The position numbers and the translations under genes were made by a program. Under the pieces are notes generated by a model. The model did not search any database and was not told the DNA's origin. It was given only the letters and a program-made list of their open reading frames with translations. A stretch of 64,000 nucleotides of DNA from Eledone cirrhosa (Eukaryota), in contig OZ024742.1 in assembly GCA_964016885.1 (NCBI GenBank), positions 156,488,001 to 156,552,000 on the forward strand. The letters are read 5' to 3'. This document shows positions 5,314 through 62,403 of the stretch, in pieces; within the stretch, counting starts at the first letter, position 1; every line of letters begins with the position of its first letter.

Positions 5314-6351
<1,038 letters not shown>

Positions 6352-6638
6352 AAAACAAATAACGAAACGAAATTAAAATTCGTTTCGCTTCTAACTCACT
6401 TTTGTATGACTGACGCTTAAACAATTAAGTTAAAGTGTACATCTACATATGTATACGGAAGTACTAGTATGCATATAAATACACATATGTATACATATGT
6501 ACATGTACCGAGCTTTTCACTAGACACTTTACAGTGAGTGTCCAGCTAGTCTGTATGTAAACACACAGACGAACCGGGTTTTAAAGTCATACGGGTTTTC
6601 AAGGAAACACACTTCCTCTATTCTCCAGAGAGCCAGAC

Positions 6639-6691
6639 AGGAATATTGGACTAGTTGCGATGTTATTACATCTCATCAGCAATATATACCT
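6639..6691 (-). ncRNA. Hammerhead (family A) with GAAA mutated to GCAA
   Basis: Reverse complement: aggtatatattg CTGATGA gatgt aata acatc GCAA ctag TC caatattcct. Confidence 0.8.
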
Positions 6692-7223
6692 ATCTTCTGG
6701 CTTCTCCGGAGAATTGTAAAAGCACATATCGTTATATGCTTTTTCAATGAAAATCAGTAGTGGGCAGACTAATTTGCATAGAACGTGAGTCATTGTACGC
6801 GCCGGTTCAGCGGAAACGATAAAAACAAATAACGAAACGAAATTAAATTTCGTTTCGCTTCTAACTCACTTTTGTATGCTGACGCTTAAACAATTAAGTT
6901 AAAGTGTACATCTACATATGTATACGGAAGTACTAGTATGCATATAACTACACATATGTATACATATGTACATGTACCGAGCTTTTCACTAGACACTTTA
7001 CAGTGAGTGTCCAGCTAGTCTGTATGTAAACACACAGACGAACCGGGTTTTAAAGTCAAACGGGTTTTCAAGGAAACACACGTCCTCTATTCTCCAGAGA
7101 GCCAGACAGGAATATTGGACTAGTTTCGATGTTCTATGCAAATTAGTCTGCCCACTACTGATTTTCATAGAAAAAGCATATAACGATATGTGCTTTTACA
7201 ATTCTCCGGAGAAGCCAGAAGAT

Positions 7224-7276
7224 AGGTATATATTGCTGATGAGATGTAATAACATCGAAACTAGTCCAATATTCCT
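7224..7276 (+). ncRNA. Intact minimal type I hammerhead (family A), predicted GUC cleavage after 7266
   Basis: aggtatatattg CTGATGA gatgt aata acatc GAAA ctag TC caatattcct. Confidence 0.92.
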
Positions 7277-7605
7277 GTCTGGCTCTCTGGGGAATAGAGG
7301 AAGTGTGTTTCCTTGAAAACCCGTATGACTTTAAAACCCGGTTCGTCTGTGTGTTTACATACAGACTAGCTGGACACTCACTGTAAAGTGTCTAGTGAAA
7401 AGCTCGGTACATGTACATATGTATACATATGTGTATTTATATGCATACTAGTACTTCCGTATACATATGTAGATGTACACATTAACTTAATTGTTTAAGC
7501 GTCAGTCATACAAAAGTGAGTTAGAAGCGAAACGAAATTTAATTTCGTTTCGTTATTTGTTTTTATCGTTTCCGCTGAACCGGCGCGTACAATGACTCAC
7601 GCTCT

Positions 7606-7613
7606 ATGCAAAT
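7606..7613 (+). promoter_or_regulatory. Octamer motif ATGCAAAT conserved in family A/B units (candidate snRNA-type distal element)
   Basis: Also at 7136, 9257, 22485, 22630, 23039, 40100 (+) and 6772, 39657, 62275 (-). Confidence 0.5.
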
Positions 7614-7693
7614 TAGTCTGCCCACTACTGATTTTCATTGAAAAAGCATATATCGATATGTGCTTTTACAATTCTCCGGAGAAGCCAGAAGAT

Positions 7694-7746
7694 AGGTATA
7701 TATTGCTGATGAGATGTAATAACATCGAAACTAGTCCAATATTCCT
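7694..7746 (+). ncRNA. Intact minimal type I hammerhead (family A), predicted cleavage after 7736
   Basis: Identical motif exactly 470 nt downstream of the 7224 copy. Confidence 0.92.
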
Positions 7747-7962
7747 GTCTGGCACTCTGGAGAATAGAGGAAGTGTGTTTCCTTGAAAACCCGTATGACT
7801 TTAAAACCCGGTTCGTCTGTGTGTTTACATACAGACTAGCTGGACACTCACTGTAAAGTGTCTAGTGATAAGCTCGGTACATGTACATATGTATACATAT
7901 GTGTATTTATATGCATACTAGTACTTCCGTATACATATGTAGATGTACACTTTAACTTAATT

Positions 7963-8033
<71 letters not shown>

Positions 8034-28778: not shown

Positions 28779-31700
28779 ATCATCATCATCATCCTCACCG
28801 TTTTACGTCCGTTCTTCCACGCTAGCATGGGTTAGACGGGTTGTCCTGTTGTGGGCAGCGTCTGGTCGGCTGACCATGCCTTGCTCATACAGGAACTGAT
28901 TTGGCTTGATTTCTACAGCTGGATGCCCTTCCTAACACCAACCTCTTTTACAGTGAGTGCTGGGTGCTTTTTCGTGGCGCCTACACGTCCACTTTACAGT
29001 GTGGGCTGGGTGCTTTTTTGCCGTGGCACCTCCACGACCACCTTGCAGAGTGGGGTGTGGGGGTGGGTGTGGGTGTGGGTGTGTGGGGGTGGGGGACATA
29101 TTGTCTATATGCTTCAGCTTGTACCCATGGGAGGTCGGGTACTCTGTATTACTGCGTGACGCCAGAGGTCACGGTCGTGTGTCATTGCCTTTGAGAGGTG
29201 TAATTGAGTAAGGTCGGCTTTTATCACCTCATCCCAGGTCATATTGGGTCTCCCCACTCCGCGGTTTCCATCGACTTCTAGTGCTCTGCACCTTTTTATG
29301 CAGCTGTCATCCTTCATACGCATCACATGTCCATACCAGCGCAACCGCCTCTCTTACACACAGCATTTGATTGCTCTTATGCTCAGTCTCTCTCTCAATT
29401 CATTTATGCTTTGTCGTTCACGTATATTACTGTTACACATCCATCGGAGCATGCAGGCTTCGTTTCTCTCTAATCTACGTAAGTCTTCCACCTTCTGCGC
29501 CCAGGTCTCACTATCATGCAACATCGCTGTTCGGATACACGCATCATACAGTCTGCCTTTCATACTGAGGGAGAAGCCTTTTGCAGCTAGCAGTGGTAGT
29601 AGTTCCCTAAATTTCTTCCATCCCGTTCTTACCCTAGTTATTGTACTTTCTGAACACCCACCTCCGCTGCTAATTCGGTCTCCTAGGTAGCAGAAGCTGT
29701 CTACTGTTTCTACAGAGCCCTCCCAGAGATTGGTGGTAATTGTTTCCTGTGGCTGTTTGCTGCTTGCTGTCCCAGCACAGCTGATGCATGTGAAGTCTAC
29801 AGTCTTAATTAAGCTTCCTGAGATCCCTGCTACATCTCTTGTGTACCCATTGTTTGCATTTGGGGCAGAGAATGGAGTTCCTACCTACACCTTTCCTACA
29901 TACTGAGCAAGGCCATTTCCCTGAGGCGATCTGGGTTCTGTTTTCTCGTCTACTTACAAGGACCTTAGTCTTTGTCATGTTGACTTTGAGACCCTTTGTT
30001 TCTAGTCCCTGCTTCCAAGTTTGGAATTTATTCTCTAGTTCTACCATATATTCAGCTATAAATGCGAGGTCATCAGCATACAGGAGTTCCCATGGGCGTC
30101 CGGTCTTAAACTCCTCCGTTATTGCCTGCAGGACTATGATGAACAGGAGGGGGCTAAGAACAGAGCCCTGGTGGGCCCCAACCTGTACGCTAAATTCCTC
30201 GCTATACTCATTGCTAATCCTAACTTTGCTGACTGCTCCCATATACATGGCTTGTACCACTTTCACAACCCATTTATCTACTCCTAGTTTTCTAAGAGCC
30301 TACCAGATTACAGCACGTGGAACTCTGTCAAAGGCTTTCTCAAGGTCGACAAATGCCAGGTAGAGTGGCTTACTTTTAGCTAGGTACTTTTCCTGTAACT
30401 GCCTCACAAGGAAGAGGGCATCAGTGGTGCCTCTTCCTGGTACAAACCCAAATTGCATCTCGTCTAGTTTCACCCGGTCCCTAATCAACTGTGCTATAAC
30501 TCTTTCTGTTACTTTCATGACCTGGTCCATCAGCTTTATACCTCTATAGATTCCTCTATCAAGTGCATCACCTTTACCTTTGTAGCAGTTGACAATGATG
30601 CTACTGCACCAATCTTTTGGTATGACACCTTCTAGTATTACCTGGTTAACAATACGTGTGGTTATAGTGTGACCTACAGACCCGGATGCCTTCAGCATCT
30701 CGGCAGCTATACCCGATGGACCGGTTGCCTTCCCCATCTTCATATTTTTGATTGCCTTACTTACTACGTTGCTGCTGACTTGAACTGCTGGCCCCTCTAT
30801 AGGGTCTTCTTGGGGGTAGGGTCTCTTCTTCCCATGCATTCTCCTCATTTAGTAATCTATCATAATGACTCTTCCATGCATCTTTCTTCTCAGCACTTGT
30901 GAGGGCAAGCTCACCTTTATCATTCCGGATACACTTCTCTCCAATGACATCACAACTCTCTCTGACACACTGCCTCGCAATCTTGACCACCTCCTGTTTC
31001 TGGTCCTCACGTTGCAAAACATGCTTGAATTGTCTATCCTCTGCTTCCTCCTAGCTAAGTATACTTGTCGCCTAGCTTCCCTCTTGATCTCTATGTAATG
31101 TACCCTGCTCCCCCCGTTCTTCCATTCTTTCCATGCCTGTCTCTTGGCCTTAACTGCCTCATCTACCTTATTGTTCCACCACCAAGTCACTCTCCTCCTG
31201 CTTGAGGTCTTACTCCAGCCACATACCTCAGCCGTCGCCTCTAGTAAGTTATTTTTTAGGAACTCCCTGTTCTCTTCTACATTGAATGTCTGTATCTGTT
31301 CTTCTTTACTATCGTAGGCGTTGAGTAAAATATCTTTAAATCTGTTACTGGTTGAGGGGTCTTTCAGCTTCTCCTGGTTGGCCTCTGTTTCCAGGTTCGT
31401 CCAGTTCTGACTGTGAGATCGCTGACAACTAAGCTATGTTGGGATGTACATTCCTCACTAGGGAAGGCTTTTGTGTTTACGACCGTCCATCTGTCACGTC
31501 CTCTGATCAGGATAAAATCTATCTGACTAGAGTGCTCCCCTGATCTATAGGTGATCAGGTGGTTGTCGGGTTTTTTAAAGTTTGTGTTACATATCGACAT
31601 GTCATTGGCGTCAAAGAATTCTAGAAGTCTGAATCCTTCCTCATTTCTTGTGCCAACCCCATGGCCTCCATGTACTCTATTGAAAAGCCGTCGCAGTGTT

Positions 31701-40367: not shown

Positions 40368-40400
<33 letters not shown>

Positions 40401-40477
40401 AATGTATATATATATATGCATATAGAGTCTTATGAAAATGGAGTCTTATTTAAAAAAAATATATATATTTATTTGGT

Positions 40478-40517
40478 TCCTTTCCCGGTTTCGCAGTTCT
40501 TTTGCTTTTCAAAAGGA
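40478..40517 (-). ncRNA. U3-A8 variant hammerhead in PLE pLTR; sister copies 40917-40957 and 47976-48015 (+)
   Basis: Consensus of three copies: cctt TTGAAAA gcag aagaa ctgc GAAA ccgg TA aagg. Confidence 0.65.
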
Positions 40518-43500
40518 GAGTTCAGATGGAGGGTCTGTGGTTTTTTCTCGCATCTGGTTGGTCCTTGAATGCTACTTGTTTTATATGGAAAAAAGTGGCT
40601 CGAAACGCCAGGTTTTTAGAGAAGCAATTTGATTGGTTTGTTAATAAGTATAATACATTTCGCGCCAGTTCACGTTACAAAGTTCTTCGAGTGACTGCAT
40701 CAACCAAGGAAACTTCACTCATATATGAAAAAAAACAACCTGAGCCTTGTTTGAAGAACTTTGTAACGCGAACTGTCGGGAAATTTATTGTTGACCAACC
40801 AATCAAATTACTTCTCTAAACACCTGGCGTTTCGAGCCACTTTTTTACATATAAAACAAGTAACATTCAATGACCAACAATATGTGAGAAAAACCACATA
40901 CCCTCAATCTCAACTCTACTTTTGAAAAGCAGAAGAACCAAGAAACCGGTAAAGGTACCAAATAAATATATATATATTTTAGAAAAAAAGACTTCAGTTG
41001 CATTTTCTATTTCATCTTTTTTTCTTTATACAGTCACTCGTCTAGGACACCTTGGTTAATTTTCATTTTGTAAAAAAACCTCACTTGCTAATACATACCC
41101 ACCACACGAAGACCGAAAATGCCAGTAAAGTCTCAACAAAGCAACAACTCACTGAACCAGGACATCTTAAATGAACGTAAAGAGATTACCTGTAATCTTT
41201 CAATTTTGACCAGCAAAGTGGATCAAATACATATCTATAAAAAGGGACCCCACTAAGAAACAGAAAATACCCAAGAGACGAATATTACTCCAACATTAAC
41301 TAAACTAATCGAAACCATTGAAACAGCAATGCTCCAAAAACTGGGAGATGTCCACTCACTAAAAAACACCCTAATCGTTATATGGACTCAAAAGCTCACA
41401 GCCCGCAAATTCGCCTTTTAGAATCTCATAAAAATAATTACAAGGCAAACATATATGAAAAGTGGCTAAATTCTACCCCAATCATCCTCCCCCAAAAATT
41501 CCAAATAAAACCCATCCCGAATGAACCAGAAAACCAACAAAGTTTTAGGGAAAATATGGCGTTAGAAAAAAAAAATAGAAATAGAAATGTTGCGATTAAG
41601 AGCCAACTCCAACAAAGAAATATTCAAATCAATCGACCAACAGATGAAAACAGAAATCTCAAGGCACTCTGAAGGCCTACTGTATGAACAAACCTGAAAA
41701 CATTGGAAAGAAAATTGTGAGGAAGAAAATCCAACATCCCTCCAGCGATGCTAAAAAAACGCCACCTGGTTCAACAACTACGAATTGGATTTCGAAAATG
41801 AAGAACATACAGGTAACCCATTTTTAAAAGGAACTAAAACTCACACACCACATGCACAACAAATAACCAAAAAAAGTAACAAAACGTCCAACATACCCCC
41901 AGCAAAACTATGACGATAATCCCAGAACCCATAGACAAAACTATAACCCTACTAACAAAAACCGAAGATCCCCCAACACAAGACAGGACCCGATTCGCAG
42001 ATCACAACCCACACAAAACCTATTCCAAAACCGTAGATCCAAAACCTGTTCCACAATCTTAGATCCCAACCCACACAAAGGAACAACATCTACAACCCAG
42101 ACTATCAACAAACCGAACCTCAATACGTCGGAAACTTCTATACAAGACTACACAACAACAGTGGAAATGCCATTAGATATAATAATACCATTGAAAAAAC
42201 ATTCCAGAAAAATCATTTTTTGGACCAAGGCACCCGGTGGCACAAACTGCTTTTGAAAAACCGAAAATAATCAACCTTTCCAATACAAACCTCTCAGCCC
42301 AACAAGTTAAAATTCTCTCCAAAGGACTGAAATGCACACCAACACCTCAATGACATAAATGACGATATCTCACACTTCTGTAGAAAATTACGTCTCACAG
42401 AGGAATTCTTTGACAAGGAGAATAACGACCAATCAATTGTACGGAATAAAAGCAGCTTCAACCCAACAAAAGGTAGAAACAGAGTTTTGGACAAATGTTG
42501 TGACCACATAGCTACTTTCCCATACAATGAACTACCGCAACCTAAACCCAAACCCAACACGATTCGAAGGAAATAGGATATTATCCATGTACTAAAAAAC
42601 AATACGGACATTTTAATTAAGGAAGCGGACAAGGGAAGTACTGTTGTCATTATGGATGCTGAAAAATATAAACATGATATGTTCTCTCTCTTACAAAATA
42701 CTAATTACTATGAAAGAGTAAAACACTACAAGCAATCAAACACAATGACCAGATTAAACACACTGCTTTGTTGATAGCAGGAAGACTTAACTAAAAAGGA
42801 ACGCGATTATTTACACATTTTGCATAAAACCAGCAAACACTACGGTCTTCCAAAAATCCACAAGTGTAAAATAATTAACGATGCCTGTAAACAATCCGCT
42901 TCAGCCTGCGTGAATACACAATAACCCACATACCTTAAATTAAGACCAATTGTAGCGGGCCCACAATGAAACACACAGATTGAACAACTTTATAGACATA
43001 CTACTAAAACCAATTCTCAAACACTTACCAAGCTTTGTAAGAGACGATCTGGACCTCTTAAACCACCTCCCCAAACATGTCAACAACGACACTATTATTG
43101 TGTATTTTGATGTAGTGAATCTCTACACAACGATCCCACACCAATAGAGACTAGACGCAATGAGATAGCTGGCGGATAAGAAAAAAGCTTCATCACCGAG
43201 GGATTACAATTTATCTTACAGAACAACTTTTTTGATTTCGATGGCAGTACTTACAAGCAAATATCGAGGACTGCGATGATTACAAAAGCCGCTCCAACTA
43301 ATGCCAACTTAGTCATGCCATACTTAGAAGTCCAGATATATGTACAGTCCAAATCAAAATAAGGATTGAACTTCTTCAAATACTTATCAGAGAATTGGAA
43401 ACGCAACTTGGATGATTGCCTCATTCTTTGGTCCCACACACTCGACCAAATGAATGATTTGAAACATTTAATTAACGGCATTAATAACCACATTCAATTC

Positions 43501-43564
43501 ACTATGGAATACAACCAAGATCAACACCCATTGCTGAACATCTTAATCTTAAAAAAAAGACATA

Positions 43565-46047
43565 CAGTGGGTCCTCGATATACGGTAGTTCTTTATCCGG
43601 TAAATTCACAGATACGGTTTTGGGTAATTACTACCATCAATTCTATTTACGGTAAAAAAAATTCACAGTAACGGTTTTTGGTCATGTTTTGTTTATATTG
43701 TACCGTAGAGCCACCTGTAGTAGCAATACATTCCCCCTTGAATTCGTGAAACTGACTGCTATTCGAATTCTAGGAAAATTGTGTTACTACTGCTATCATA
43801 CTAATTGACCTTACCGAGAAACTGGCCAATAACGAGCGAGTTCAGATATCGGTCGATGACGTCATAACTCTTAACTGATCACTTCAGTTCGGCAAACTAG
43901 CGCGTCCTCTCAGTGAGAGAATGTTTGCCGAACTGAAGTGATCAGTTAAGAGTTATGACGTCATTCAAAGTAAGATAAAACCTGAAGGCGTGTTTTTGGA
44001 GCATAATTATTGCGCCATATCTTATAACCCCATATCTCATGGCCCCAAACCATCCTGCGAATAATGCTGATGCAGATGGAAAGGTCAAACGTATGAGGAA
44101 GAGCCTGACTTTGGAGATAAAGCTTGACATTTTGAAAAGGAAGGAACAGGGACAAGGTACGTGCACCATAAGTTGTAACTTAGGCCTAGCCCAGTCTACA
44201 ATCTAGACTGTTTTAAAAAATAGTGAAGCTGTCAAAAAAGCTGAGGAGAATGCTACGAGTCTACATAGTAAATTGTTGACCAAAAATCGTGTGCCGATTA
44301 TGGATAGGATGGAAAGGTTGCTCAAAATTTGGATCGACGACCAAAAACGTCAAAATATGTCTCTGTCTTTAAATGTAATCAGTCAGAAAGCATTGTCCCT
44401 TATTGACAGGCTCAAGACTGACATGGGGGGGGGGGGAATACTTTGTATTCAAGGCAAGCAAAGGCTGGTTTGATAAGTTCAAACGACGTTCGAGTCTTCA
44501 CAAAATAAATGTTACAGGTGCCGCTGCCAGTTCCTACAAAGAGAGTGCTGAAATATTCAAAGCAGAGTTAGAGAAATGCATTGCACAGAAAGGGGTACAG
44601 CAAAATACAGGTTATTAAGTATGATAAAACAGGATTTTATTGGAAAAAGTTGACCACTAATACTTATATTGACAAGGAGAAGAAAAGTGAGAAGGGGTTC
44701 AAAGTCTCAAAGGACCGTGTTACTCTGTTACTAGGAGAGAATGCAGAAGGAGATTTAAAGCTAAAGCCACTCATTATCTACCATTCTGAAAACTCAAGAA
44801 CACTTAAGCAATACCTACCAGTGATATGGAAGTCTAATAAGAAAGCATGGCTGATCACTTCAATTCACCAGGACTTTTTCACCTCATCTCTGTCACCAAC
44901 CTTTAAGGAATATTCATTAGCTAACAACATAGCCAACCGTTTTCTGCTATTAGTGGACAACGCCCCCAGCCACCCACGGGCAATGGAAGACTGGTCAGAA
45001 ATTATCGAGGTTTTGTTTCTTCCCCCAAACACCACAGCTCTAATTCAGCCGATGGATCAAACAATCATCAAAACATTTAAGGCATACTACCAGCGGAGAA
45101 CCATGAAGCAGCTGATAAGGGACACAGATGTGCTTGACAAGACCACGATCAGGGAATGGGGGAAATTGTACAACATCAAGCACGGGTTAGACAACATCAA
45201 GGCATGTTGGGAAGAAGTGAAGCAGTCTACCATGAACATGGCCTGGAAGCAATTATGGCCAGCATGTGTGAATGACTTCCAAGGTTTTGCTGAGGACATT
45301 GGTGCGATAAAAAAAGATATTGTAAATCTCTGCCATAGAGCTGGCTTCGATGGTGTTAATGATGATGATGTGCAAGACCTTTTGGAAAGCCACGCTGAAC
45401 CTAATCCAATGATGAACTCATAGAACTAGACAAGGCGATAGAGGAGACAGAAAAAGAAGAAGAGTAGGAAGAAGAATCTGTGCGTGGCTTGGACATAAAA
45501 ACTCTAAGAGAATGTCTCGGGAGTATCGAAACAATCTTAGAATCCCCGAAAGAGCGTGACCCCAACCCTGCTAGGAGCAGCAAATTGGCTCAAGATGTCG
45601 ATAAAGAGCTCAAGATTTACCAAAAATGTATGAAGTCAATAGAAGCACCGCCAAACAGTCCTCCATCTACTCTTTCTTCAAGTCAGTCACACCTGCCAAC
45701 CATGCTACAGCTGGCCCTTCAGAATCCACTGCAGTCAACGAGTTTGTTGGTTTTGAGCCTTCCACATCACCCTCATTCTCCCCTGCCATCTCGGCCCAAG
45801 ATGAGTAAGGGCTGTACCCCACACTGTCCTTTAGCCTCGGAAGGGACACATGAAGAGGCACATCATCTGATGGAATACGCGGCATGTGTAAGGTATAGTA
45901 AATAAAAAAGAAAACATTATTTCTTTTCTATAGGGATGAATTTGTTGATGTGCTGGAACGCATCCCTATCTATTTCATGTTATAATGGGTTCTTTATACG
46001 GTAAGGGTTTCAGGAACGCATATATACCGTATATCGAGGACTCACTG
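43565..46047 (+). mobile_element. Tigger/pogo DNA transposon, 23-bp TIRs, TA TSD
   Basis: cagtgggtcctcgatatacggta ... taccgtatatcgaggactcactg, flanked by TA; removing it rejoins the PLE RT. Confidence 0.95.
44039..45808 (+). pseudogene. Tigger transposase (CENP-B HTH plus DDE_1), with stops and frameshifts
   Basis: RKSLTLEIKLDIL, MERLLKIWIDD, FKASKGWFDKFKRR, DKTGFYWK, LLVDNAPSHP, FLPPNTTALIQPMDQ. Confidence 0.93.
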
Positions 46048-47343
46048 TATATATTGAAACTGACATACACTACAAAACAAATAGATTCCAAACAATACCT
46101 GCTATTCACCTCCAACCATCCAAAGTACACGAAGACGAACATTCCTTTTAACTTGCAAGAACGATTTGCACAATTGTCTCCAATTATGAAACGCGAAATA
46201 AAAGACTTTAAGAATTAAAGGAAATTCTACTTGAGAGAGAGTACCCACTATTACTAATAAATAATGGAATAGAAAGGGCTAAAGCAATAGGCATTGATGA
46301 ATTACGAAAACAGAAACAAATTCAAGGTACGTCCAATATTCTATCATATATCTCAACACACAGCCCAAGAAATGCGGAAACTTACAAAACTATTTACAAG
46401 AACATCCCACTATTGAAACAAGACCCAAGAATGAAAAAAAGCCCTTGAAACACATAAAATAATCAAAAGCAAAAGACAACCGAATTCACTGAAAACATTA
46501 CACACCGATACCAAATTACTACCACAAACCCACAACCAACTGTCAAAAAATTGTGGAACATGCACTCACCTCATTGAAGGCAACACGTATACATTTCAAT
46601 CAGGACAACATTTTGCTGTAAAAAATCACTTCACATGCTCATCAAAAAATCTAATTTAAGCCATTAAATGTAAAGGATGCTATGAAGATTATATAGGACA
46701 AACTAAGCTCACACTCAGAAACAGAATGACAGTTCATCGCCAACAATTACGAGATCCAACCTCGAGACAGATATAACTAAGCGCACATCTAGACATATGC
46801 GCAAGTAATAAGACACCCAAATTCAAAGTCTTTCCGTTTCATCTTTGCGCTGACAATACAACAGAACATATACGAATAAATAAGGAACATATGTTCATTC
46901 AAAAATATTTCTACTAACGGAATCATCCCCCCCCCAACAAAAATACACAAAATATATATTCTCTTCATCTTAACATGCTAACCATACTCCCACACACACA
47001 CAACATCCATGCACACACACAATACACCTCCCACCACAACTCCCTCCCCATTTCTACTAATAGAATCAGTTTCCTACACACATACACACACAAAATATAT
47101 ATATTCTCTCCATCTTAACATACTCCCCCACACACACACAACTCCCTCCCTCATTTCTACTAATAGAATCATCTTCATATACACACACACACACGCACAA
47201 GCACACAAATAAACATACATATCTCTACTTTCTTTATTTTAATAGAAAGTCTGAATTCGGAGACCCCAGCGAACCAGCCATATTGACTGAACCAAAACAA
47301 TTCTCCCATCCCATTTCTCTTGACCATTATATTTTGTTTGTCA

Positions 47344-47523
47344 GGTGGATTGGCAGTATCGGTAGAGGGTCGGACGTCATGCTTTCCAGCATAGTTACGT
47401 CCCTTTACGATCTGAGTTCAAGTCCAGCCGAGGTTAACTTTGCCTTTCATCCTTACGGGTCGATAAAATAAAGTACCAGTAATGCACTGGGTAATTGCTG
47501 GCCTTGTGCCTAAAGTAGAAACA
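47344..47523 (+). mobile_element. tRNA-derived SINE inserted in the PLE 3' region, 18-bp TSD
   Basis: TSD attatattttgtttgtca at 47326 and 47524. Confidence 0.92.
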
Positions 47524-48687
47524 ATTATATTTTGTTTGTCATAAAATTCTCTAAAAGATTACAAAATAAATTCCCAAATACGGGCGCGGACTTTAATGAA
47601 CTTGTTCACATGACAGCCATACTTTCATTTATAACCAATCAAATTACATTTATAAAAAAAGCCTTCGTAAGCCCCTTTTTTAGGTAAAAAGAAATTCAAA
47701 CAAACTGGCGCGAAAGCTGATGTGCTTATTCACGTGACTGCATCAACCAACCAAACTTCACTCATATATGAAAAAACAACCTGACTCCCCCCCCCCCCTT
47801 GTTTGAAGAACTTTGTAACGCGAACTGACGCGAAATTTATTATACTTATTGACCAACCAATCAAATTACTTCTCTAAAAAACCTGGCGTTTCTAGCCACT
47901 CTTTTCCATATAAAACAAGTAACATTCAAAGACCAACCATATGTGAGAAAAACCACAGACCCTCCATCTCAACTATACTTTTGAAAAGCAGAAGAACTGC
48001 GAAACAACTAAAGGAACTAAATAAATATATATATTTTTTAAAAAATATGACTCCAGTTGGATTTTCGATTTCGTCTTGTATTCTTTATACTTTCACTCGT
48101 GTAGGACACCTCCGTTATTTTTCATTTTGTAAAGAAACCTCATTTTCTAATATATATATATATATACATACTGATATATACACACAGGAAGTCACGCACA
48201 TACAAACATAACAATTCATTATTTTAAAATTGTGATTCAGTTTCTCCACTGTCATCTCGCATAGTATTTGATTAGTTAATATAGATTAATATTTATCAAA
48301 ATATCATTCAATGTGTATAGAGAGATAAAATAATTATTTTTGCTGCAAATGGAAAATTCTCTAAACATTTGAAAACCTTCAATCTACGTCTGGAGATACT
48401 AACTCACTTAGGATGAATAGATTTTAAGATATTCCTTCGCTAGCAGCTGCAGATTTTTTGTAGATTCTCCATTAATGCACATATTATCATGGAAACAAGC
48501 GATGTAAGAGGAATAATTGTGAAAAGAAAATAAGTGTCATGTTTTCTACGTCTCTCTTACAATTACGTAAGTTCCTGAAGGCATACATTCATTATATTAT
48601 CGCAATAAGAAAAATGTTATAACATAACCATGATTTAAAAAACAAATTAAATACTAGATACGTCAACCACCACGATGATAATAAGAA

Positions 48688-49379: not shown

Positions 49380-49587
49380 TAAATTAGACACCCAAAGAAA
49401 ATATTTTACGCCAAATATTGAGTGTACACAAATAATTCCTGATATTTTTCTTCGCTCTGCCAACTAAACGAAATAATCACAAAAAAAGGATAAACATTGT
49501 ATTATAAAGGAAGCCGGCAAAGGAGGTACTGTCGTCATCATTATTGTTACAAAATGATACACAAACCTTGTGCCGAATATGCTAAAG
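49380..49587 (+). pseudogene. PLE RT fragment ending at the hAT left TIR
   Basis: IIKEAGKGGTVVI...YTNLVPNMLK. Confidence 0.7.
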
Positions 49588-51985
49588 CATGCATGTCAAA
49601 CTGAGGATCCCTCAAGGACCGCATGGTTCACATATGTCTTGCCTGAGGGCCACATACAACAACTAACTGTGCACATTACAACCAATTAAAGTCATTTAAT
49701 GAAATTTATTGCCGAAAAATTTGTGATTTAAATTTAGAAACATACAATGTACATTCATTTTTTTTAGCAGCATTCACGAATACAAAGTAATGAAATGATT
49801 TGAGAAAAAAATAAAATATTAAATGGCAACATATACTTGCAGCTTGCAACAGCAACAAATACATTATACAAACATTACAACAGTTCAAACCTGAACATTT
49901 ATTTGCAACTATTCAACCATTTAATCCTGGGGCTTGACACCTCTTTTTGTTGAAAATCTTTGGTATGGCTGGCTGAAATATCTGTACAGTTCTGACTTTG
50001 ATCAGGGATGACATGTGTTGATAAGTCAGCCTTATTCTCTGAGAGGCTTTTGTTAATTTCATGAAGGAAAATAACTGTTCACAAACAGGTAGAACCAAAC
50101 ATTGCTATAATCTTTGTGGTAAACTTTCTCAAGTGTTTTAACTTTTCAGGAAGTGATGGAAAGAAACCAGGTATCCTCATTTCAAGATACTTTGTTCTTA
50201 GTGTAGAATTTGACTTCATTTCCAATACTTCCATCTGCAGGCTTTCTCCTGCCTTGGCAACATCAAAGGTAATAGTGCTGAGAATAATGCAAACTAACGT
50301 TCAAAAGATGAGAAATCACAAAATCGTACCTGAAATTCCTTTGATAACAGTTCCAGGTGACTGTCATACTTAGCACAGCTAAGTACAGAATCAGTATTGA
50401 CAGTGCTTTTCAGCTCTTTCCACTTAGGAAAATGAACTAAATTTTCATTTGACAACTGTGACTTCCATAAACTTAGTTATCTAATGAAGCACTTGATGTC
50501 ATCATACAACTGAGTGATGAGTTTGTATTTACCATGTAATTTCAAATTTAGATCAGTTAATTGTGCAATAATATCCCCATCAAAATTCAGATCTTGGAGC
50601 CAACTTTCCTCTTTTATTTCATTTGTGTGTTGACCTTTTATCTTCAAAAATATAATTATTTCCTGTCTCAACCAGTAGAACATTTTCAGCACTTTATGAC
50701 ATGACAACCAACAGACTTCTGTGTATTATTGTCATCAGTGAACTGATTATCCATATTTTCCAACAACTGGCTGGACTGACGGCGGTTGAGAGCACGGCCT
50801 CTGATATAGTTCACTGTCTTTGAGACCAAGCTAAGCACAGGATGCAATTTAAAACATTTGAACACAAATGTTGCTGATGAATAATACAATGGAAATGTAC
50901 AATTGATGAATCTCGATAAGAGTTTTCTATTTTTCTTCGTAACTTGGCAGTAACACCATTATAGCTGCCACCCATATTCGCATCTCCATCAGGAGATGAG
51001 CATGCAAGTTTACTCAAATCAAAGCCATAATCATGCTGAAGCTGCTCGACTTTCTCAAAGATGTCCTGGTGTGTTGTAGTGTTATGCATGGGGAGCAGTT
51101 CAATCAATTCTTCATAAATATTAAATTCACTGTAACATGCCCTTATTAAAACTACCAGCTCTGATATTCCAGTGATGTCAACGGTCTCATCAATAGCAGT
51201 ATAAACATGTTCAAACTTTGATGATATAGCCTTCATCTGTTGTTTCAGATCACCTGCCATTTCATCAATCCGTTCAGCAAAAGTGTTCCTGGTTAATGAA
51301 CTGTCTTTGAATAACTGTGATTTATCTGGACATACAATTTCAGCTGTTTTTACAAGGCATTGCATTAAAAATCTCCTTCAATGTAAGATTTCTCAACCAT
51401 GACAATCATTCAGCTGAGTTCATAGCTTGCAGTAATCGAAGCAACATTCTCTTCCTGAATTTACATGTTGCTGTGTCAAGTTAGCCTTCAATTCCTTGTG
51501 TCTTCAAACACGCTTTGGGCCTTCATATTTATCTTAAGATCGATGCTTCGTTTTATAATGCCTTTTCACATTGTACACTTTTGGCGTGGCGATGCAGCTG
51601 TTGCAAATTAAACAGTGTATATTTCCGTTCCCTATTGTGCAAAAATACTGCAATTCCTACTTTTCTTGAAACACTCGGCCTTCTTCGTTCAATTTTCTTT
51701 TTCACTTAGCTGGAGGAGCACTAACCATTTTAAAACAAAAAAAAATTGAAATTTTAAAAGAATGTTTTCTGTTTACAACTTTTAATGAGCTGCGCGTGAT
51801 TCGTCGGAAGGGTAAAGTGATTGACAAAAATCGCACAAAAAAAAATCGTATCGAAAACATTTTTTACTATATAGTACGAAGATAAAAAATGTTCGAGCTA
51901 TAAAAATCTATGTGTGGGCCGCAGGTGTGCTTGGAAAGGGCCAAATGCGGTCCAAAACGAGCGTGTAATTTATGGACACCCAAGT
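49588..51985 (-). mobile_element. hAT transposon (SPIN/GTF2IRD2-like), decayed
   Basis: Degenerate TIRs catgcatgtcaaac and tatggacaccc; transposase relic between them. Confidence 0.85.
49913..51728 (-). pseudogene. hAT transposase (GTF2IRD2/SPIN-like)
   Basis: EGRVFQEK, LTRNTFAERIDEM, AIDETVDITG, HFHCIIHQQ, LNLKLHG, CEQLFSFMK. Confidence 0.9.
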
Positions 51986-52784
51986 GGTTTAGAAGTCGAC
52001 CTTAATTAGGAGCAATAACATTAAGAAAGACATGAAGATCGTTTTGTATTGAATATTTTGAAAGTAGGCTTATAAGTATGAATTTTCAGTAGGGTTCCGT
52101 AGCTGTCTCAGTGACCTAACGGTAGGTACTAAAGACGGTGGATATCCTGGTCTTGGGTTCAGTCCTAGTCAAGAGGTACATGTAACCGTTTTCAGTTTTT
52201 ATTTTACAACCCATGGACAAAAGCTGAGAAGGCTTCCCTGGAACCCTACATACGGCGAGGATCGAACTTCAAACCAGGATCAAAACCGTGTATGATTCCT
52301 TCAACTAGCCCACCGAAACAGCTAGAAAAGTAGAATGAAAATTAATAATGATAAACCTACTTTCAAAATCAAAATTAAAAAGATGTGGTGTTGTTCATGG
52401 CATTCCTAGAGATATTAGTCATATTTACATTTGAGATCTCAATCTTCTGGCACTTTATTAACAAGTTTATTATTCCTATGTGTGTTTAACTGTTGAATTA
52501 ATTAAATTATTCTAACAACTAACACACCAGACAACAATATTACGTTAAAATATACAACATAGAAAATTAAAATAATATCTACACATTGAAATGACCCAGC
52601 AGGTAGTCGAATCAAAGAGGCAAGCGAAATAGAGCTTAGAAGGACAAAGCCCTAACAGAAAAATTTAATGTAATAACAACAACACTCAAACAAACAATAC
52701 TGACTTAAGACAAATATAAATAAATAAATAAATAAATAAATAAATATATAAATATAACCACAATATAAATATATAAATATATAA

Positions 52785-53881
52785 ACCAGATGGAAAAATG
52801 CGTACAGCAAAAACAGTAATATTGTTGGAATATAAACCTTTTAAAAATACAGGACAAGAAACTAAAATAAAACTTTAAAAGAATAGGACAAGAAACTAAG
52901 ATAAAACTTTAAAAGAATAGGACAAGAAACTAAGATATAACTTTAAAGAATTGGACAATAAATAAAAAAATATTACAATAATATTAGTGGCAAAATTTTT
53001 ATTGGTAAAAAATCGAGTTCCACATTCATAGGCTCTGGGTTCCACATTCAGAGGTCGTCGTCAGACCGGGGGATCATTTGATCCTGGTTTGAACACCAAT
53101 TGGGCCATAACCATACCCCTATTTCATCATTCGGCGACACGCCTCATGTGTCATGCATAATGTAAATGGACCCATGGGCCCATGAGCACAGATCTTGAGC
53201 AGCAGCGACCGGTCTTGTCGTCCCGCTCATCCTTGATCTTGACAAACCCGTCCATCTTCTCCTTGCATCTTGTACTTGAGTTCATGTCCGGTAGTCCACA
53301 TGAATGCGTGCCACAGCTTTCTGGTACAGGGAGGGGGAGCAGGAGGACTGGAGGGATGACGGGACAGAGGGAGGGAGGACCGGTGGTTGAGGGAGGTGCC
53401 GTAGTCGGTGGTCAGAGTCGACATCTTGTCCCGGTCGTCTTCTCCATCTTCGTCTGGTGTTTCGGGACCAGAAGTGCATTCTTGGAGGAGACCTGCAGCT
53501 GCATCGGCCAATTCTTCTTGCAATGGTCATTCTGACGGAGCAGAACTGCTCAGCCAACCAACCCCAACCAGAACCAATCGCTCAGGGGCAACGCACAATG
53601 AGAGCATGACAATTATTATGCACCAATCAAGAAGATACTGGGGCATAGCACAGGAAACGAATAAAAAAATGTTGTCACTAATATTATTGTAACATTTTTC
53701 TTATTTCTTGTCCAATTCTTTAAAGTTTTATCTTAGTTTCTTGTCCTATTCTTTTAACGTTTTATCTTAGTTTCTTGTCCTATTCTTTTACAGTTTCATT
53801 TTAGTTTCTTGTCCTGTATTTTTAAAGGTTTATTTTCCAACAATATTACTTTTTTTTGCTGTACGCATTTTTCTATCTGGT
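52785..53881. mobile_element. Foldback-like element: ~220-bp inverted arms with ~31-bp subrepeats enclosing a GC-rich core
   Basis: Arms 52785-53003 and 53660-53881; subrepeat aggacaagaaactaagataaaactttaaaagaat. Confidence 0.75.
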
Positions 53882-55297
53882 CTACTATTTTTTAAGGCAA
53901 TGCAAGCAACAACTATCTAATAATTAAATGATCATAGTTTATTACTGACAAGTGATTGACATTTTAAAGTTCTTTTGAGTATAATTGCAATCTAGTTGTG
54001 GCAACTGGCTTAATGACAAAGCTAGTAATTCATGAATGCATTTGAGATGATTAGTGCATAATAGTGAATTGGTGAAACTTGTGCATTTCAATGGTGTTAC
54101 AACAATAGATGTAAGTTATATAGTAGTAATACTTTATCATTTTAACTTTTTAGAATGGACAAAAAACCATGCAAAGAAATGACTTTGACTGCAGTGATTC
54201 TCTTCAATTTACTTACAAAGCAAAACGTGGTCAAATACCTTAATTCCTCATAAAATGCACCTATGAATCGGAAGCCATCACATATATCTATGGATATAGA
54301 GAGTTGTTCACACTGGAAGACCATCACTTCATTTGTGACTTCATCAGTTATCTCCACAATTATCTCAGACACCCAATGCCATTGATGAGAGGTGATCCAA
54401 TGTGTGAACATGTAACTAATCTTATAGAAGTTGTTATCGACCACCTGTCTTTTAGTGACATTTGACTGATTTGACTGGTAATGATGTATTTTTAAAACGT
54501 ATGTCTACATTCTTGTTACTATTTTAAGGCAATGCAAGCAACAACTATTTAATAAAATTTAAATTTAAAAATGATCATTGTGCATTACTAGTATGATGAC
54601 ATTTTATTAACTCACAAAATTAGTCAGTCAGCCATAGAACAAGGATCAGGTGGCAAAAATATTGTCAAAAAGTTGTGTCAATTTAAGATTTCCAACATTG
54701 TTCAAATGAATCATATCTGGTTTGAAGTCAGATTTGTCAAATTTTGACCAATTTTCAATGTTGTGAAGATTGGGCAAGTTCAACTTTTGAATCATTTCTT
54801 TCATGCAGTAATTAAACTTTTCCAAACGTCGTCATTTCTGGATCACCTCCCCTAGCGTCACGCTTACTACTCACTCACTTGAACACAAGATTTATCAGCA
54901 AACTTTGATTATAAACTTTTTCCCGCTGGACCAAATTTCTAGATGTTTACGCCAAAAGATACGTAATGATCTACTGTTCATGCTCATATAAGTTCTATCT
55001 CAGTTAAATAAAGTAGAGCCGCGCTGTACTGTCGTAAACAGACGATTGCCAACGAAAACACGACCACAACAATATTACTAAACGGACTACGTCCGTTTAG
55101 GATATAACCACATTAACAAAAAACACTAGTAAACTAAGATAGAATACAATAACCAAAACGCAGTCACCCAAACGCGAACACACACCAAACACTATACACA
55201 CGCAAAAGCATGCGCAGAGAAGAAGACACAAATAAATAAATAAATAAACAGATAAAATAGAAATGGCGTTGACATCAAATACAACAGGAGGAACATA

Positions 55298-55351
55298 ATA
55301 GTACCACTGATGATGTTGAAGATGTTCAACGAAATAACTTTGTTAGACTAT
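55298..55351 (+). ncRNA. Decayed hammerhead (family D-like context)
   Basis: tacca CTGATGA t gttgaa gatg ttcaac GAAA taac TT tgtta; perfect 6-bp stem II. Confidence 0.55.
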
Positions 55352-55595
55352 ATATATGAGTTTATATATATATATATTATGTCAGAATGTTTGACCGTTG
55401 GTCAGTCAATGTTAAACATTGAGTACCAAATGAATTAACTGTGTTAATATAAAAGATACAGAACCGAAAAGCAACGAAAGAGTGTGTAGGTTCTGTTATT
55501 ATTTCTGGTAATATTATTACAACAATATGACCCACCCCAAATATAACAATATTTGTTTGGACACACGATTTCATAACAAAAACTTCACAAAACAA

Positions 55596-55651
<56 letters not shown>

Positions 55652-55653
55652 AT

Positions 55654-55683
55654 ACTAGTCGAATTACCCGCGCCTTGCTGCGT
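55654..55683 (-). mobile_element. Possible Helitron 3' terminus
   Basis: Reverse complement cgcagcaaggcgcg (bulged hairpin), then ~11 nt, then CTAG|T. Confidence 0.35.
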
Positions 55684-55787
55684 TTCACACGTTTATTTTT
55701 TGTAAGAAAAGTGATGATTGATTTAAAATCAATGATAACAATATATATATTGTTGAAAATTGCAAACTTGATTGACAGCACTGAATA

Positions 55788-55826
55788 TGTACCTGAAGAT
55801 TCCGAAGGCCCGAAAGTACTTGTGCA
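55788..55826 (+). ncRNA. Hammerhead (family C) in diverged copy 55751-55975
   Basis: tgtac CTGAAGA ttccgaaggccc GAAA gtac TT gtgca. Confidence 0.65.
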
Positions 55827-56629
55827 ATTAACACTTAACAGTTAACATTCTACCATACTATTTCATTATAATATTATAATTTTAAAGGATTGTAAATAAA
55901 CCGAGTAAATTACCCAAAGCTGGAATTCCTTTTATTAATATAATCTTATATACACAATCATACACACCCGTGTATATTTATATATCTATATCTATATATA
56001 TATATATGATATTTATAGATATACACGTGCCGACACGCACACATGTATTGCACATTGATGGGTGCATACATACTTGTACACAAGTATCCCATACGGCAGG
56101 GCCTAATGGATTCACCTTGCAGTACGTACAATCTGGAATCATACACGCTTTGTTGTTATGACAATACTATACATCATTTCACCTCTTTTATTATTGATGT
56201 TATTGATGTTCTTTTGAGAGAATCGTTTTTGCAAATGACTTGAAATATCGGTTAATGTACGCCATTTTTACCAGTAAAACAAAAATACTGGTCCATACAA
56301 ACACACACACACACAAACACACACACACATACACACACACGCATGTATACGCGTACACTAACATACAAACATATACACACACACACGCGCGCCTCTCCGT
56401 ATAAGACAAGAGCTGAAAAATATGTTTCAACATGTTAAAATCACCACCCCTACACACACACGTACACACACTTTCCTACTGACCGATTCATGTCGATTAT
56501 CACAACAATGAACCACTTTGCTACACACACACACACACACATATTTGTCGTAATAGAAACCTGTACTGTTGACCTCTCAACATGACTGCAACTGAATCAA
56601 GCGGAAAAGGACACTCTTCGATAAACCTG

Positions 56630-56950
56630 CATTTTGCGCGAATCCAGTTCACGCTAAAATCAATTTAAACCTTCACGTGACTTCTACCGACCAATCAAAA
56701 TTGTTTTGACTACAATCATTTTTACAACACGAATTGGCGCGAAATTTATAGTGCTTATCACATGATAATCAACAACCAACCAAATCTTAATACCTCCAAA
56801 GCCACTGTTTTCACATAAATCAGGTAGAATTTCCAAAACTGATCCGATTAGAGAAAAAATCACGAGCATTCTATCTCAAAATTATTTTTGAAAAGCATAA
56901 GAATCGCGCAACCGGTAAAAACTTAAAATTAAACTAAATACTAACTAATA
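56630..56950 (+). repeat. Diverged PLE pLTR-like segment
   Basis: accaatcaaa, ggcgcgaaattta and ttttgaaaagca..ccggta shared with 47630-48015. Confidence 0.6.
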
Positions 56951-57067
56951 GTTATTACTAATTTATAATTATTCCCAATTAAACTATTTTTCACTGGGAA
57001 AAATTTGTCGGCATATTTTTCATTTTAACTAATATATCACAACTCGTGTGTCACGTCTCTATCTTTT

Positions 57068-57152
<85 letters not shown>

Positions 57153-57339
57153 CCAATCATTATAAGTTTAAATCTGACATACAGAAACATACATATATAT
57201 GAGTAAGGTAAGCCCAAAGATAAAGAGGGAGAGAGAGAGAGACGGGGAGGGGGAAGACAGAGAGAGAGAGGGGAGAGAGGGGGAGAAATGAGGTGCAACA
57301 GAAATGAACATTGATTACAGGTTAAGATATAGTCTAGAT

Positions 57340-57539
57340 TAGGCATGTTTAACAGAAGGTCCCCCGAGTGCCATATGTGTCACATATGTGTTGTCTGATG
57401 GCCAGACATGACAACTAATTGCACACATTACAACTCATTTTTTAGATTTTATATTATGAAGTTAAAACTTGTTCGCACTTTAAAACGTTTGTGCGAGGCT
57501 CGGGTGTGCTTGTAAAGAGCTGCATGTTTGGCACGCCTT
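57340..57539. mobile_element. Non-autonomous hAT deletion derivative (MITE) related to 49588-51985
   Basis: Left end taggcatgtttaac..cacatatg..caactaattgcacacattacaac; right end ggtgtgcttg..gtttggcacgcct. Confidence 0.7.
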
Positions 57540-57547
57540 TTGTAAAG

Positions 57548-59340
57548 GACACTTCATACTATGAAAACGCCAAATTATACAACATGTTTAATGTGATGAA
57601 ACAATGCACTGATGTACTGCGCCCATTACAAAACTGTCTAACCGATTTGGATCTCACCTAGTTCAGAAGTAAAACAAGTAATATCTATGGATACTGAATT
57701 TGCACAATAATGAACTGATTGATGAAACAAGAAACATATGAAAACCGATTCTATAAAACCCGCTCAAGTTAACTGAAATCTAAGGCCGATCATAGCAAAC
57801 GCAATTTGTGATACACATCATCTAAGAAACTTCTATACATCGTGCTAGAACCACACCTCAAATACATCCGAAGCTTCATACGCGATGATCTAGATATATT
57901 CAACCGTCTACTAAATTAAATAACCTGAAGTACCTATATGGTTACATTAGTTAGCGTGAACTTCAATAGTAAGATGTCCCACTACTACAGAATCGTGCCA
58001 ATCAAATACTGCCTGGACTCATATTCCTATGCGCTAGCAAACCGCATTGGCAGATATGTCATCAATTTATTCAAAGTAAATAGCTACTTTATATTCAACC
58101 AAGATGCCTAGCAACAACATCCATATGATTACAATTTGTACCGTAACTAAGTCTTTGTAAATAATGGATTATACATCTAGAAACAAACTTTGCAGATTTA
58201 TCTGAATAACTTCAGACAACGAGAAAAGATACCTCGTTGAAATGTTCATACTGAGGAGGGGAAATCCTAAAGAGATAAATATATTCCAAACGCTCACTAA
58301 AGAACCCTAACATCCAATCTACTTCGGATATCAGCAACGAAAGGCTACTTTACACATACTACTGAAAATATAAAACAATAAGCTAGAGACTGATATATGT
58401 TCCAAACAGACCGACTCTCGAAAATATCTCTTTTTAGGTTTTCTTATCCAACACACACCCGCGCCAATATTCCACTTAACTTAAGCTAAGCAAATATGCA
58501 CACTAGTCTCAACTCAGGACAAAATACCAGAGACTAGAAGAGGTGAAACAAACATTCATAAGAAGAAAAATACCCGCAGAATCTAATCTATAATAGTATT
58601 CAAAAAGCAAAAATAAATTAATACCCAAGCACCCCCCCCCCAAAAAAAAAGGAAGGGAGACCATATATGACACTTGTCACAAATTTAAGAGTGGTGTTAT
58701 TTTATTTAAAGGTTTATGAGATGTGCATGAAATTACAATTTATTACTTTCAAAATAGGACCATGAGGAGTCACACCGTGGTTTCCACGTTTCTCCCTACA
58801 TTTACACATTGATAGTCAAAGAGCCAGTAATCTGCGCACACACATATCTAAAGCTATCTGTCCATTTAAAGAATTAAAAACCACTTACAAAAATACACAA
58901 TTATGAAAAGTAAATATGACAGCCTAAGTCACTGAAAACGTATTAACATATGTAAACTGTAAACGGGAAAGTTAGCACTTCAAGTGAAAAAATTCCAGCC
59001 ACTTATTAGAAGGGCAAGAATTCCATTTCAAAAGGATTCCATTTTAAAAACTAAAAATAACTTTTCATGCAATTCAGAGAATAGAATAGGTATTATAACA
59101 TGTAAGTGTTGCCTTGAAATCTACATTGGGCAAAGAGGATTAACACTCGAATTATGAATGACAGTTAACTGCGGTTTTCATCTCGATACAACAACATATA
59201 GAGGAACGTGGAAAGCACATTTTGCCGAGTGTCCATGTCTTCTCATTGTACAAATATTGACAGTCAATGTCAACAGAAAAGCGCATTGGCAAAGAAAAGT
59301 TATATTTAGTAAAATTTAGGCCAAAGCTGAACTCTTTGCA
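57548..59340 (+). pseudogene. Old PLE RT and GIY-YIG relic, continuing the fragment at 49380-49587
   Basis: DTSYYE, LRPIIA, SFIRDDLD, LETDICSKQTDSRKYL, TCKCCLEIYIGQ; U3-A8 HHR relic at ~59494-59530. Confidence 0.8.
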
Positions 59341-61150: not shown

Positions 61151-61850
61151 TTATATATGAGAGTTTCTAAAATATACATTGGTTATATCATGATTGTATT
61201 ATATTTATTTTTTATGTGCTTACTTCCTGTATTCCAAAAGTTTGAAATATATAATGGCAGTATATATTTTCCTGTATTAAAACGGTGTTTTGTGAATAAG
61301 TATATTTGTCATAGCCATTGTTTAAATATTGATTTTTACTTCAACAATATCTTATACTCCATCATCAATATATCGTACTATATATTTCCATACATTAAGA
61401 TATCATAAATTTTAATCGCCTTCAGCCGAGGGGGAACTGAAGTATGTTACAAATAAATCGAGACATACTTCTACTATATATTCATCCTATAGCAGAATTT
61501 GATTTTCAGCGAAGGAAATTCATCAACTCAGCAAAAAGTTTCCCAAAACTTGGAATCTTGTATCTTAAAAGACCTGATATGTGTATACTCACAAAACAAA
61601 GATACTAAATACAGAACACGATAAAGACATTTCAAAATATATGAATGTAAAAATACACACACACACACACATACACACATATATATATATGTTTCGGTTA
61701 TTTGTCGGAGATTTCTTCATAGAAGCCTCATTCTTATAGCCTGGTCTATTCGATTTTTTATATGGTTAATTATGCTAATTGGGAGAGGAAATAGTATATA
61801 TTTTATCTTGTGATTCTATAGACATGTTTTATGATATATATATATATATA

Positions 61851-62403
61851 TAAAAACAAATAACGAAACGAAATTAAATTTCGTTTCGTTTGTAACTCAC
61901 TTTTGTATGACTGACGCTTAAACAATTAAGTTAAAAATGTACATCCATATATGTATACTGAAATACTAGTATGCATATGAATACACACACGTATACATAT
62001 GTAGATGTACCAAGTCTTTCACTGGTTACTTTACTGTGAGTATCCAGCTATTCTGTATGTAAACACACAGACAAACCGGTTTTTAGATTCATACTGGTTT
62101 TTGAGGAAACACCTTTCCTCTATTCTCCAGAAAGCCAGACAAGGAATATTGAACTAGTTTCGTTGTTGTTACAACTCATCAGCAATATTTACCTATCTAC
62201 CGGCCTTTCTGGAGAATCGTAAAAACACATATCGTTATATGCTTTTTCTATGAAAATTAGTAGTGGGCAGACTAATTTGCATAGAGTGTGAGTACGTACC
62301 GGTTCAACGGAGACGATAAAAACAAATAACGAAACGAAATTAAATTTCGTTTCGTTTGTAACTCACGTGGTAACAACAACGAAACTAGTTCAATATTCCT
62401 TGT
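61851..62403 (-). mobile_element. Diverged family A copy (1.1 units) with a short terminal fold-back (62369-62403)
   Basis: Starts after (TA)n at the same nucleotide as 6351 (aaaaacaaataacgaaacg). Confidence 0.88.
62142..62194 (-). ncRNA. Intact hammerhead (family A variant) with compensatory stem II change
   Basis: Reverse complement aggtaaatattg CTGATGA gttgt aaca acaac GAAA ctag TT caatattcct. Confidence 0.9.

Follow-up and report, generated by a model that had tools for sequence, protein, structure and literature searches.

A 7,952-bp block of a Buster-type hAT element, a spacer and a cognate MITE inside one Penelope-like element of Eledone cirrhosa, probably moved by its two outer ends

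Macrotransposons formed by the maize hAT elements Ac and Ds were reportedly described by Huang and Dooner in 2008. According to excerpts of the literature, from which all papers are cited here, such a unit carries an autonomous and a non-autonomous hAT element at its ends in direct orientation, encloses mostly repeats and is flanked by an 8-bp duplication, and one formed by Ds and Ac moves up to 100 kb (PMC3260210). By analysing a 64,000-nucleotide stretch of the Eledone cirrhosa genome (the window; assembly GCA_964016885.1, contig OZ024742.1, positions 156,488,001 to 156,552,000 of the forward strand), we found a block of 7,952 bp with a similar layout: a decayed Buster-type hAT element (E1), a spacer of 5,353 bp and a miniature inverted-repeat transposable element (MITE) of 200 bp (E2), which together interrupt one Penelope-like element (PLE). 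E1 and E2 belong to one hAT family and bracket the intervening DNA in direct orientation. Unlike the maize units, which came from a selected genetic event, this block involves the Buster rather than the Ac branch, lies in an animal host and would be an ancient fossil recognised by its structure.

Three other described systems resemble the locus in part. Composite Insertions, as far as the available excerpts go, share the order of target site duplication (TSD), element, flanking DNA, second element and TSD, have 8-bp TSDs and are 14-24 kb long, the same order of size as here (PMC4270019; bioRxiv 10.1101/2020.08.10.245175; the reversed-ends type also PMC3744419). They copy a linked donor with an internal junction, whereas neither a parental copy nor an internal junction was found in the 64-kb window, which extends only ~5 kb downstream of the PLE. 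Pack-TIRs, including Pack-hAT-N8_XT, likewise hold extra DNA within terminal inverted repeat (TIR) ends in an animal genome and are apparently single-copy, but they consist of captured host DNA between a single pair of ends (PMC8277862, in excerpt); the present block has four ends, the inner two of which are complete, and a spacer without a Pfam match or recognised host gene. Buster hATs and MITEs (Mar, PMC3517528; Buster1/2, PMC4298943; AnBT, PMC12637253) are described in the excerpts as having short CAGG-type TIRs, an nnnTAnnn target, a length of ~2.4 kb, a transposase of ~610 amino acids, cognate MITEs and a tendency to horizontal transfer, and all of this is close to what is seen here or, in the case of transfer, suggested, although the family end CAGGCATGTCAAAC is not among the TIRs in the excerpted Table 1 of PMC4298943. 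In the literature searched, coverage of which was partial, we found no natural Buster macrotransposon in an animal, and we make no claim that none exists.

The evidence that carries the layout comes from the split PLE (PLE1), whose reading frame ends with base 49587 and restarts at 57548. When 49588-57547 was removed, a check proposed with the original prediction, 25 of 120 PLE proteins aligned in frame across the junction with at least 15 codons on either side, against 1 of 120 when both flanking 8-mers were kept; the reference set was the best 120 of 130 matches to the protein of a second PLE in the window (PLE2). The junction alignment is free of gaps in all six alignments printed. Among 91 possible resume points, scored with the 25 reference segments that have the KEAxKG motif among the top 30 matches, 57548 came first (81.2, with the runner-up at 73.0), and in a two-dimensional scan of cut positions the best cuts shifted only inside the duplicated 8-mer. 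Against a profile of 21 full-length PLE proteins, 49480-49593 matches positions 105-141 and the sequence from 57539 onward matches positions 137-735; the two pieces together cover positions 105-735 of 736, and the same profile detected no PLE coding piece in the spacer. The join is far above chance. The block sits inside a single PLE copy split at one site, and all four junctions are element ends. The predicted arrangement of hAT element, spacer and cognate MITE within a PLE is confirmed by the flanks, the frame join and the continuity of the profile.

Pieces that failed to join colinearly, or that came from different PLE subfamilies, had been named as grounds for dropping the original prediction, and neither was found. 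Colinearity is clear; the comparison of subfamilies is weak, with the rankings of 114 references by the two pieces agreeing at rho 0.33 (p 3e-4) because the 5' piece comprises only ~36 codons. The insertion had been placed in the PLE reverse transcriptase (RT), but it falls near residue 160 of the reference protein P0014, whose RVT_1 match lies at 262-445, and is therefore ~100 codons N-terminal to that match, within the PLE open reading frame (ORF) and outside the RT core. RVT_1 was found in all three PLE reference proteins examined for domains and GIY-YIG in two of them, which agrees with the single ORF, RT then GIY-YIG, of PLEs. A protein search with the decayed 3' piece of PLE1 gave 0 of 46 candidates; the closest named PLE proteins among the matches listed are from Argonauta hians (52%) and Octopus sinensis (48%), which suggests an octopod host. 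PLE2, at about 40400-48200, is better kept, with terminal repeats at 40683-41097 and 47726-48156 that are 85% alike and a palindrome at 40432-41003. It is itself split at about 43566-46049 by a DDE_1 transposon with TA flanks, presumably of the Tigger/pogo type, and its frame resumes colinearly.

Contigs from sequencing reads bear on the junction between the MITE and the PLE. It is spanned by near-identical contigs from two read runs, X3 (record 21, 1 difference in 1,235) and X4 (record 32, 2 differences and 1 gap in 2,145), which represent one sample, possibly the source. Runs X1 and X2 covered 7 and 8 of 30 bins, respectively, in scattered places, and the junction was not among the covered bins. 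No near-identical contig crosses the inner MITE junction among the X3 and X4 pieces listed, and the rows listed from contig placement contain neither a joint nor a loose end for the empty PLE site. An assembly artefact might be suspected where listed contigs, possibly from the source sample, span only one of the four element junctions. We nevertheless find it scarcely credible, given that E1 and E2 are ~74% identical over ~180 bp and so offer no exact repeat to mis-join, and that a mis-join would not restore the reading frame to the codon.

The flanking 8-mers require more caution. The outer pair and the inner pair each match at 6 of 8 positions when read directly, as had been reported, but the weight given to this as evidence of TSDs was too high, given the target preference of the family and the fact that unrelated flanks here also reach 6 of 8. 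Loose ends among the contigs gave flank consensuses of ATTTAGAG (41 contigs), CTTTAAAG (45) and CTCTAAAG (22) ahead of the end CAGGCATGTCAAACTGAG, with agreement of 0.46-0.67, from which the preference may be read as nTYTARAn. A central TA at positions 4-5 is present in all four flanks and in the family consensus, consistent with the 8-bp nnnTAnnn target reported for Buster elements (PMC3517528, in excerpt). For 8-mers of the window, a match at 6 or more positions has a probability of 0.0075 at random, rising to 0.066 if a central TA is required and to 0.34 if nTnTAnAn is required. Either outer flank, when reverse-complemented, also reaches 6 of 8 against the inner-left flank. In simulations with an assumed value for target strictness, independent targets reached at least 6 of 8 in 5-25% of cases, and a true duplication gave exactly 6 of 8 in 28-31%. 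These chance rates rule out the 6/8 match as proof of a TSD. We accept the outer pair as a duplication because of the PLE join, and it is on this ground, not on the 6/8 match, that we count the outer ends as sharing one target which is restored by removal of the block; this feature and the two direct elements of one family are two of the three that define a macrotransposon, the third being the earlier presence of both elements at a donor site. Each outer 8-mer deviates from nTYTARAn at a single position, and the positions differ, as would be expected if one duplicated target had then decayed.

Both inner flanks match the family target at all six constrained positions, as would be expected of two ordinary earlier insertions. 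They match the outer 8-mers at only 3-4 of 8 positions, which bears on two further explanations, namely a tandem double insertion at one target with a spacer added later, or two PLE copies joined by rearrangement. Two points suit such a history: the spacer consists mostly of repeats, some apparently younger than the block, and the shortness of the 5' PLE piece means that register more than subfamily ties it to the 3' piece. Still, we judge it highly improbable, as both ends of the spacer adjoin element ends at target-like 8-mers and as two PLE copies would be unlikely to take independent insertions at one and the same codon (best of 91 registers). The tandem double insertion in particular is largely refuted by the flank comparison.

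The inner flanks are also the main point in favour of recombination with a circle, a cointegrate-like process in which a lone family member, lying in the PLE between the outer 8-mers, would have recombined over ~100 bp common to the element ends with circular DNA that carried the other member, inserted there with a duplication of its own. The spacer would then be circularly permuted, and each pair of 8-mers would be a true duplication. The 6/8 match of the inner flanks has a likelihood ratio of 1.5-7 for a true duplication, but these flanks fit the family target regardless, the alignment of a paralogous contig runs on through the inner-right flank (X3 record 17, X4 record 25), and the inner-left flank hangs on a post hoc call of the end of E1. 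Circular DNA would be needed as well as recombination over ~100 bp. A second transposase step, of a kind known from maize, in which the inner ends are re-inserted into the spacer after macrotransposition would leave the same inner duplication. We regard the circle as unlikely, and it is quite unlikely that the locus is a cointegrate-type product with two true duplications, in which an animal hAT fused circular DNA into the chromosome.

The broken transposase of E1 keeps the D, D, CxxH, W and E positions, which we take to be the D/D/E, CxxH and W motifs. Two full-length relatives of this transposase carry a Spin-doc zinc finger (PF18658) scoring above the cut-off and DUF4371 below it, the named matches include SPIN-DOC-like and GTF2IRD2-like proteins, and the longest open stretch is 57-71% identical to 10 matches. 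On its target, CAG-type TIRs and transposase residues, E1 is provisionally assigned to the Buster branch of hATs. With 72 private amino-acid changes in 474 positions, the decay appears to be roughly 8-10% for the gene and somewhat higher for the ends. The end at 49588 had been described as the left TIR of the hAT, and it is indeed an element end; since the transposase lies on the minus strand, it corresponds to the 3' end of the gene. The family end derived from contigs, which begins with CAG, differs from three of the block ends at 1-3 of 14 positions and from the inner end of E1 at 6-7 of 14. This degenerate end could be placed at 51986, which needs a 2-nt insertion in the TIR, or at 51984, which needs two substitutions; only 51986 yields a target-like flank, and the inner-left flank depends on that choice. 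The spacer thus begins at 51987 and not, as first proposed, at 51986. We also considered E1 as a stand-alone insertion ending at 51984 and rejected this, with a flank that matches at 5 of 8, no central TA and no PLE beyond it.

E2 is built from both ends of E1, its left part being identical to the left end of E1 at 70 of 95 positions and the rest to the right end at 64 of 87. The internal joint near 57435 is crossed by paralogues, with at least 31 letters on each side, in 8 of the 16 X3 and X4 pieces listed (some of these contigs are the same in both runs, and a ninth piece has 30 letters), and the left part is covered by more than 100 contigs. In the left segment, E1 agrees with the majority at each of the 10 listed positions where E2 departs from it, leaving shared private changes at 0 of 10. 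In the right segment a script marked 3 of 6 differences as common to E1 and E2; on inspection by eye, one of these sits on the internal joint and another next to a gap in the alignment, and the remaining one (57472) is at chance level. The idea that E2 is a deleted duplicate of E1 was rejected on the MITE-family joint in the paralogues and on the lack of shared private changes in the left segment. The membership of E2 in a MITE family excludes a self-duplicating cointegrate, and the two elements are not copies of one. Joints of several lengths occur among the contigs at 57404-57504, with sides of only 23-26 letters, and suggest at least two MITE subfamilies that differ in their internal deletions.

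In the reading that we consider probable, a transposase used the two outer ends and the block entered the PLE as a unit; confidence in this and the other mechanisms is a matter of judgement and not of computed posteriors. A joint move through the outer ends of two direct-oriented elements was the main inference of the original prediction, which named recombination of two hAT copies as the alternative, and it is supported, although the TSD matches are far weaker than was claimed. As to the variant, we give cut-and-paste macrotransposition about an even chance and consider a reversed-ends composite insertion with re-replication rather unlikely; both end in an identical layout. We infer that, while the family was active, a full-length E1 and the MITE E2 stood within a few kb of each other at a donor site, in direct orientation and each inside a target 8-mer of its own. 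During the move the transposase would have paired the outer end of E1 with the outer end of E2, bypassing the inner ends, and the whole unit would have been inserted into a preferred 8-mer of an already decaying PLE, with duplication of this 8-mer. Later insertions would have enlarged the spacer, and all parts would have decayed by roughly 8-14%. A Buster element can move 8.5 kb at ~10% of its efficiency, according to the excerpted report (PMC12637253).

Several observations count against a joint move by the outer ends. Neither a donor site, a second copy nor an empty allele was seen in the 64-kb window and the contig rows listed; the window holds no second copy of the spacer or of either element, which makes the composite-insertion variant less likely. 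In the contig placement, which took in the junctions of E2, reads confirm one of the four element junctions among the contigs listed. The outer end of E2 lacks ~19 bp and its terminal base is off the family end, so the decay must postdate the use of that end. The outer ends are not significantly better preserved than the inner ends, with 4 of 28 against 9 of 28 differences from the family end (p 0.20), and the simulated likelihood ratio for the inner flanks favours a true duplication, which simple macrotransposition does not predict.

A further route is gap repair, in which a break in a family member resident in the PLE would have been repaired by copying a hAT-spacer-MITE donor from outer end to outer end, with the donor persisting. 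Template-copying gap repair has been proposed for single-copy Pack-TIRs, but in the excerpted account their breakpoints are biased to the element interior (PMC8277862), whereas a complete inner end stands on each side of the spacer here. DNA synthesis would need to continue beyond E1's own right end, and with no parental copy in the window we find this route very unlikely. Coordinates of the block, which we read as moved by its outer ends, and of its host are given in Table 1.

Table 1. Features of the PLE1 locus and the block within it (positions in the window)
Feature	Position	Strand	Description and evidence
PLE1 5' piece	49480..49587	+	N-terminal region with KEAxKG motif, 5'-truncated; profile 105-141, E 4.8e-8; 69-71% DNA identity to PLE2 42591-42667
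Outer target duplication, left copy	49580..49587	+	TGCTAAAG; in-frame join with one copy removed
E1	49588..51986	-	Full-length dead Buster-type hAT, 2,399 bp; outer end 13/14 to family end; inner end degenerate (51984 or 51986)
E1 broken transposase gene	49916..51728	-	6 stops in 491 aligned codons, several frameshifts; tblastn with P0001/P0004, residue table
E1 inner flank	51987..51994	+	GTTTAGAA; fits nTYTARAn
Spacer ('cargo')	51987..57339		5,353 bp; repeat and microsatellite patchwork, no recognised gene; self-alignments
Old palindromic repeat	52055..52369		Arms 61-69% alike; self-alignments
Foldback element	52775..53892		229-bp arms, 93% alike
Dispersed repeat	55751..56023		78-84% to 1687-2216
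Decayed piece like PLE2 terminal repeats	56721..56959	+	64-72%
MITE inner flank	57332..57339	+	GTCTAGAT; fits nTYTARAn
E2	57340..57539	-	200-bp MITE of a multicopy family, same family and orientation as E1; ~19 bp short near outer end compared with E1
Outer target duplication, right copy	57540..57547	+	TTGTAAAG; junction spanned by near-identical X3/X4 contigs, one sample
PLE1 3' piece	57548..59335	+	Remaining N-terminal region, RT, GIY-YIG; strongly decayed; profile 137-735, tblastn, reference domains

The spacer has no Pfam family in any of its six frames, and a search of 48-60 kb against Rfam gave 13 matches, none of which reached the gathering score. Evidence of an amplified or gene-carrying composite element is not shown at this locus. 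The foldback element appears to be younger than the block because its arms are 93% alike, compared with 74% for E1 and E2. The spacer thus probably lengthened after the event, and what moved may have been a smaller unit. Its interior (53000-53665) is richer in GC and lacks a Pfam match, its arms contain 33-bp tandem units, and its right arm is adjoined by a direct repeat (53883-53966 and 54517-54606) that is 76% alike overall with a core of 33 of 34. Further along, 54154-54459 looks coding, with one stop in ~102 codons after an AG that is a possible splice acceptor and with no Pfam match; it may be what is left of a transposon, or else an exon of the host. Within the old palindrome, 52092-52330 resembles by eye what we take to be the A and B boxes of a tRNA-derived SINE, and no Rfam tRNA match was found there.

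The E1-type hAT may have been transferred horizontally. A metagenome contig (L004) is 85.5% identical in DNA to the coding region of E1 over 1,795 bases (window 49960-51734, L004 1495-3273). Each codon position has nearly the same share of mismatches (64, 61 and 73 of 504, or 12.7, 12.1 and 14.5%; p 0.51) and both transposase copies are broken, from which it follows that the active ancestors were almost identical. The DNA upstream of this coding region in L004 (1.5 kb) resembles nothing in the window and does not match the family ends, and no usable copy of these ends was found among 39 metagenome loci. Named protein matches to the E1 transposase include one from Trichuris suis (71%), and horizontal transfer has been reported for Buster elements in the excerpted studies (PMC4298943, PMC12637253).

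The window as a whole is AT-rich (34% GC) and dense in microsatellites. Broken frames at 29200-31700 on the minus strand look by eye like a LINE endonuclease and reverse transcriptase. At 6349-7967 there is an array of direct and inverted repeats of 250-460 bp that are 98-99% identical, with a relative at 61834-62366 (86-89%); the array reflects either a recently formed foldback structure or an error of local assembly.

This is a single locus without evident function, in which both elements are dead and the spacer has no recognised gene, and on our analysis it is a clean fossil, probably of a mechanism already known from maize. Moves of hAT elements by paired ends are well shown in maize and rarely recognised as natural fossils in animals, since the empty site is as a rule not known; the present case is unusually clean because the split retroelement serves as a ruler for that site. 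It suggests a genome-wide screen for old elements split by two-ended blocks. If the cointegrate-type reading, which we hold to be quite unlikely, were true and such two-ended fossils proved common, a Buster family acquired by horizontal transfer would have shuffled kilobase segments of this genome routinely through moves of paired ends. The rearrangement of coleoid genomes, whose driver is called unclear in the excerpted account (PMC8967140), would then have a candidate mechanism that can be counted.

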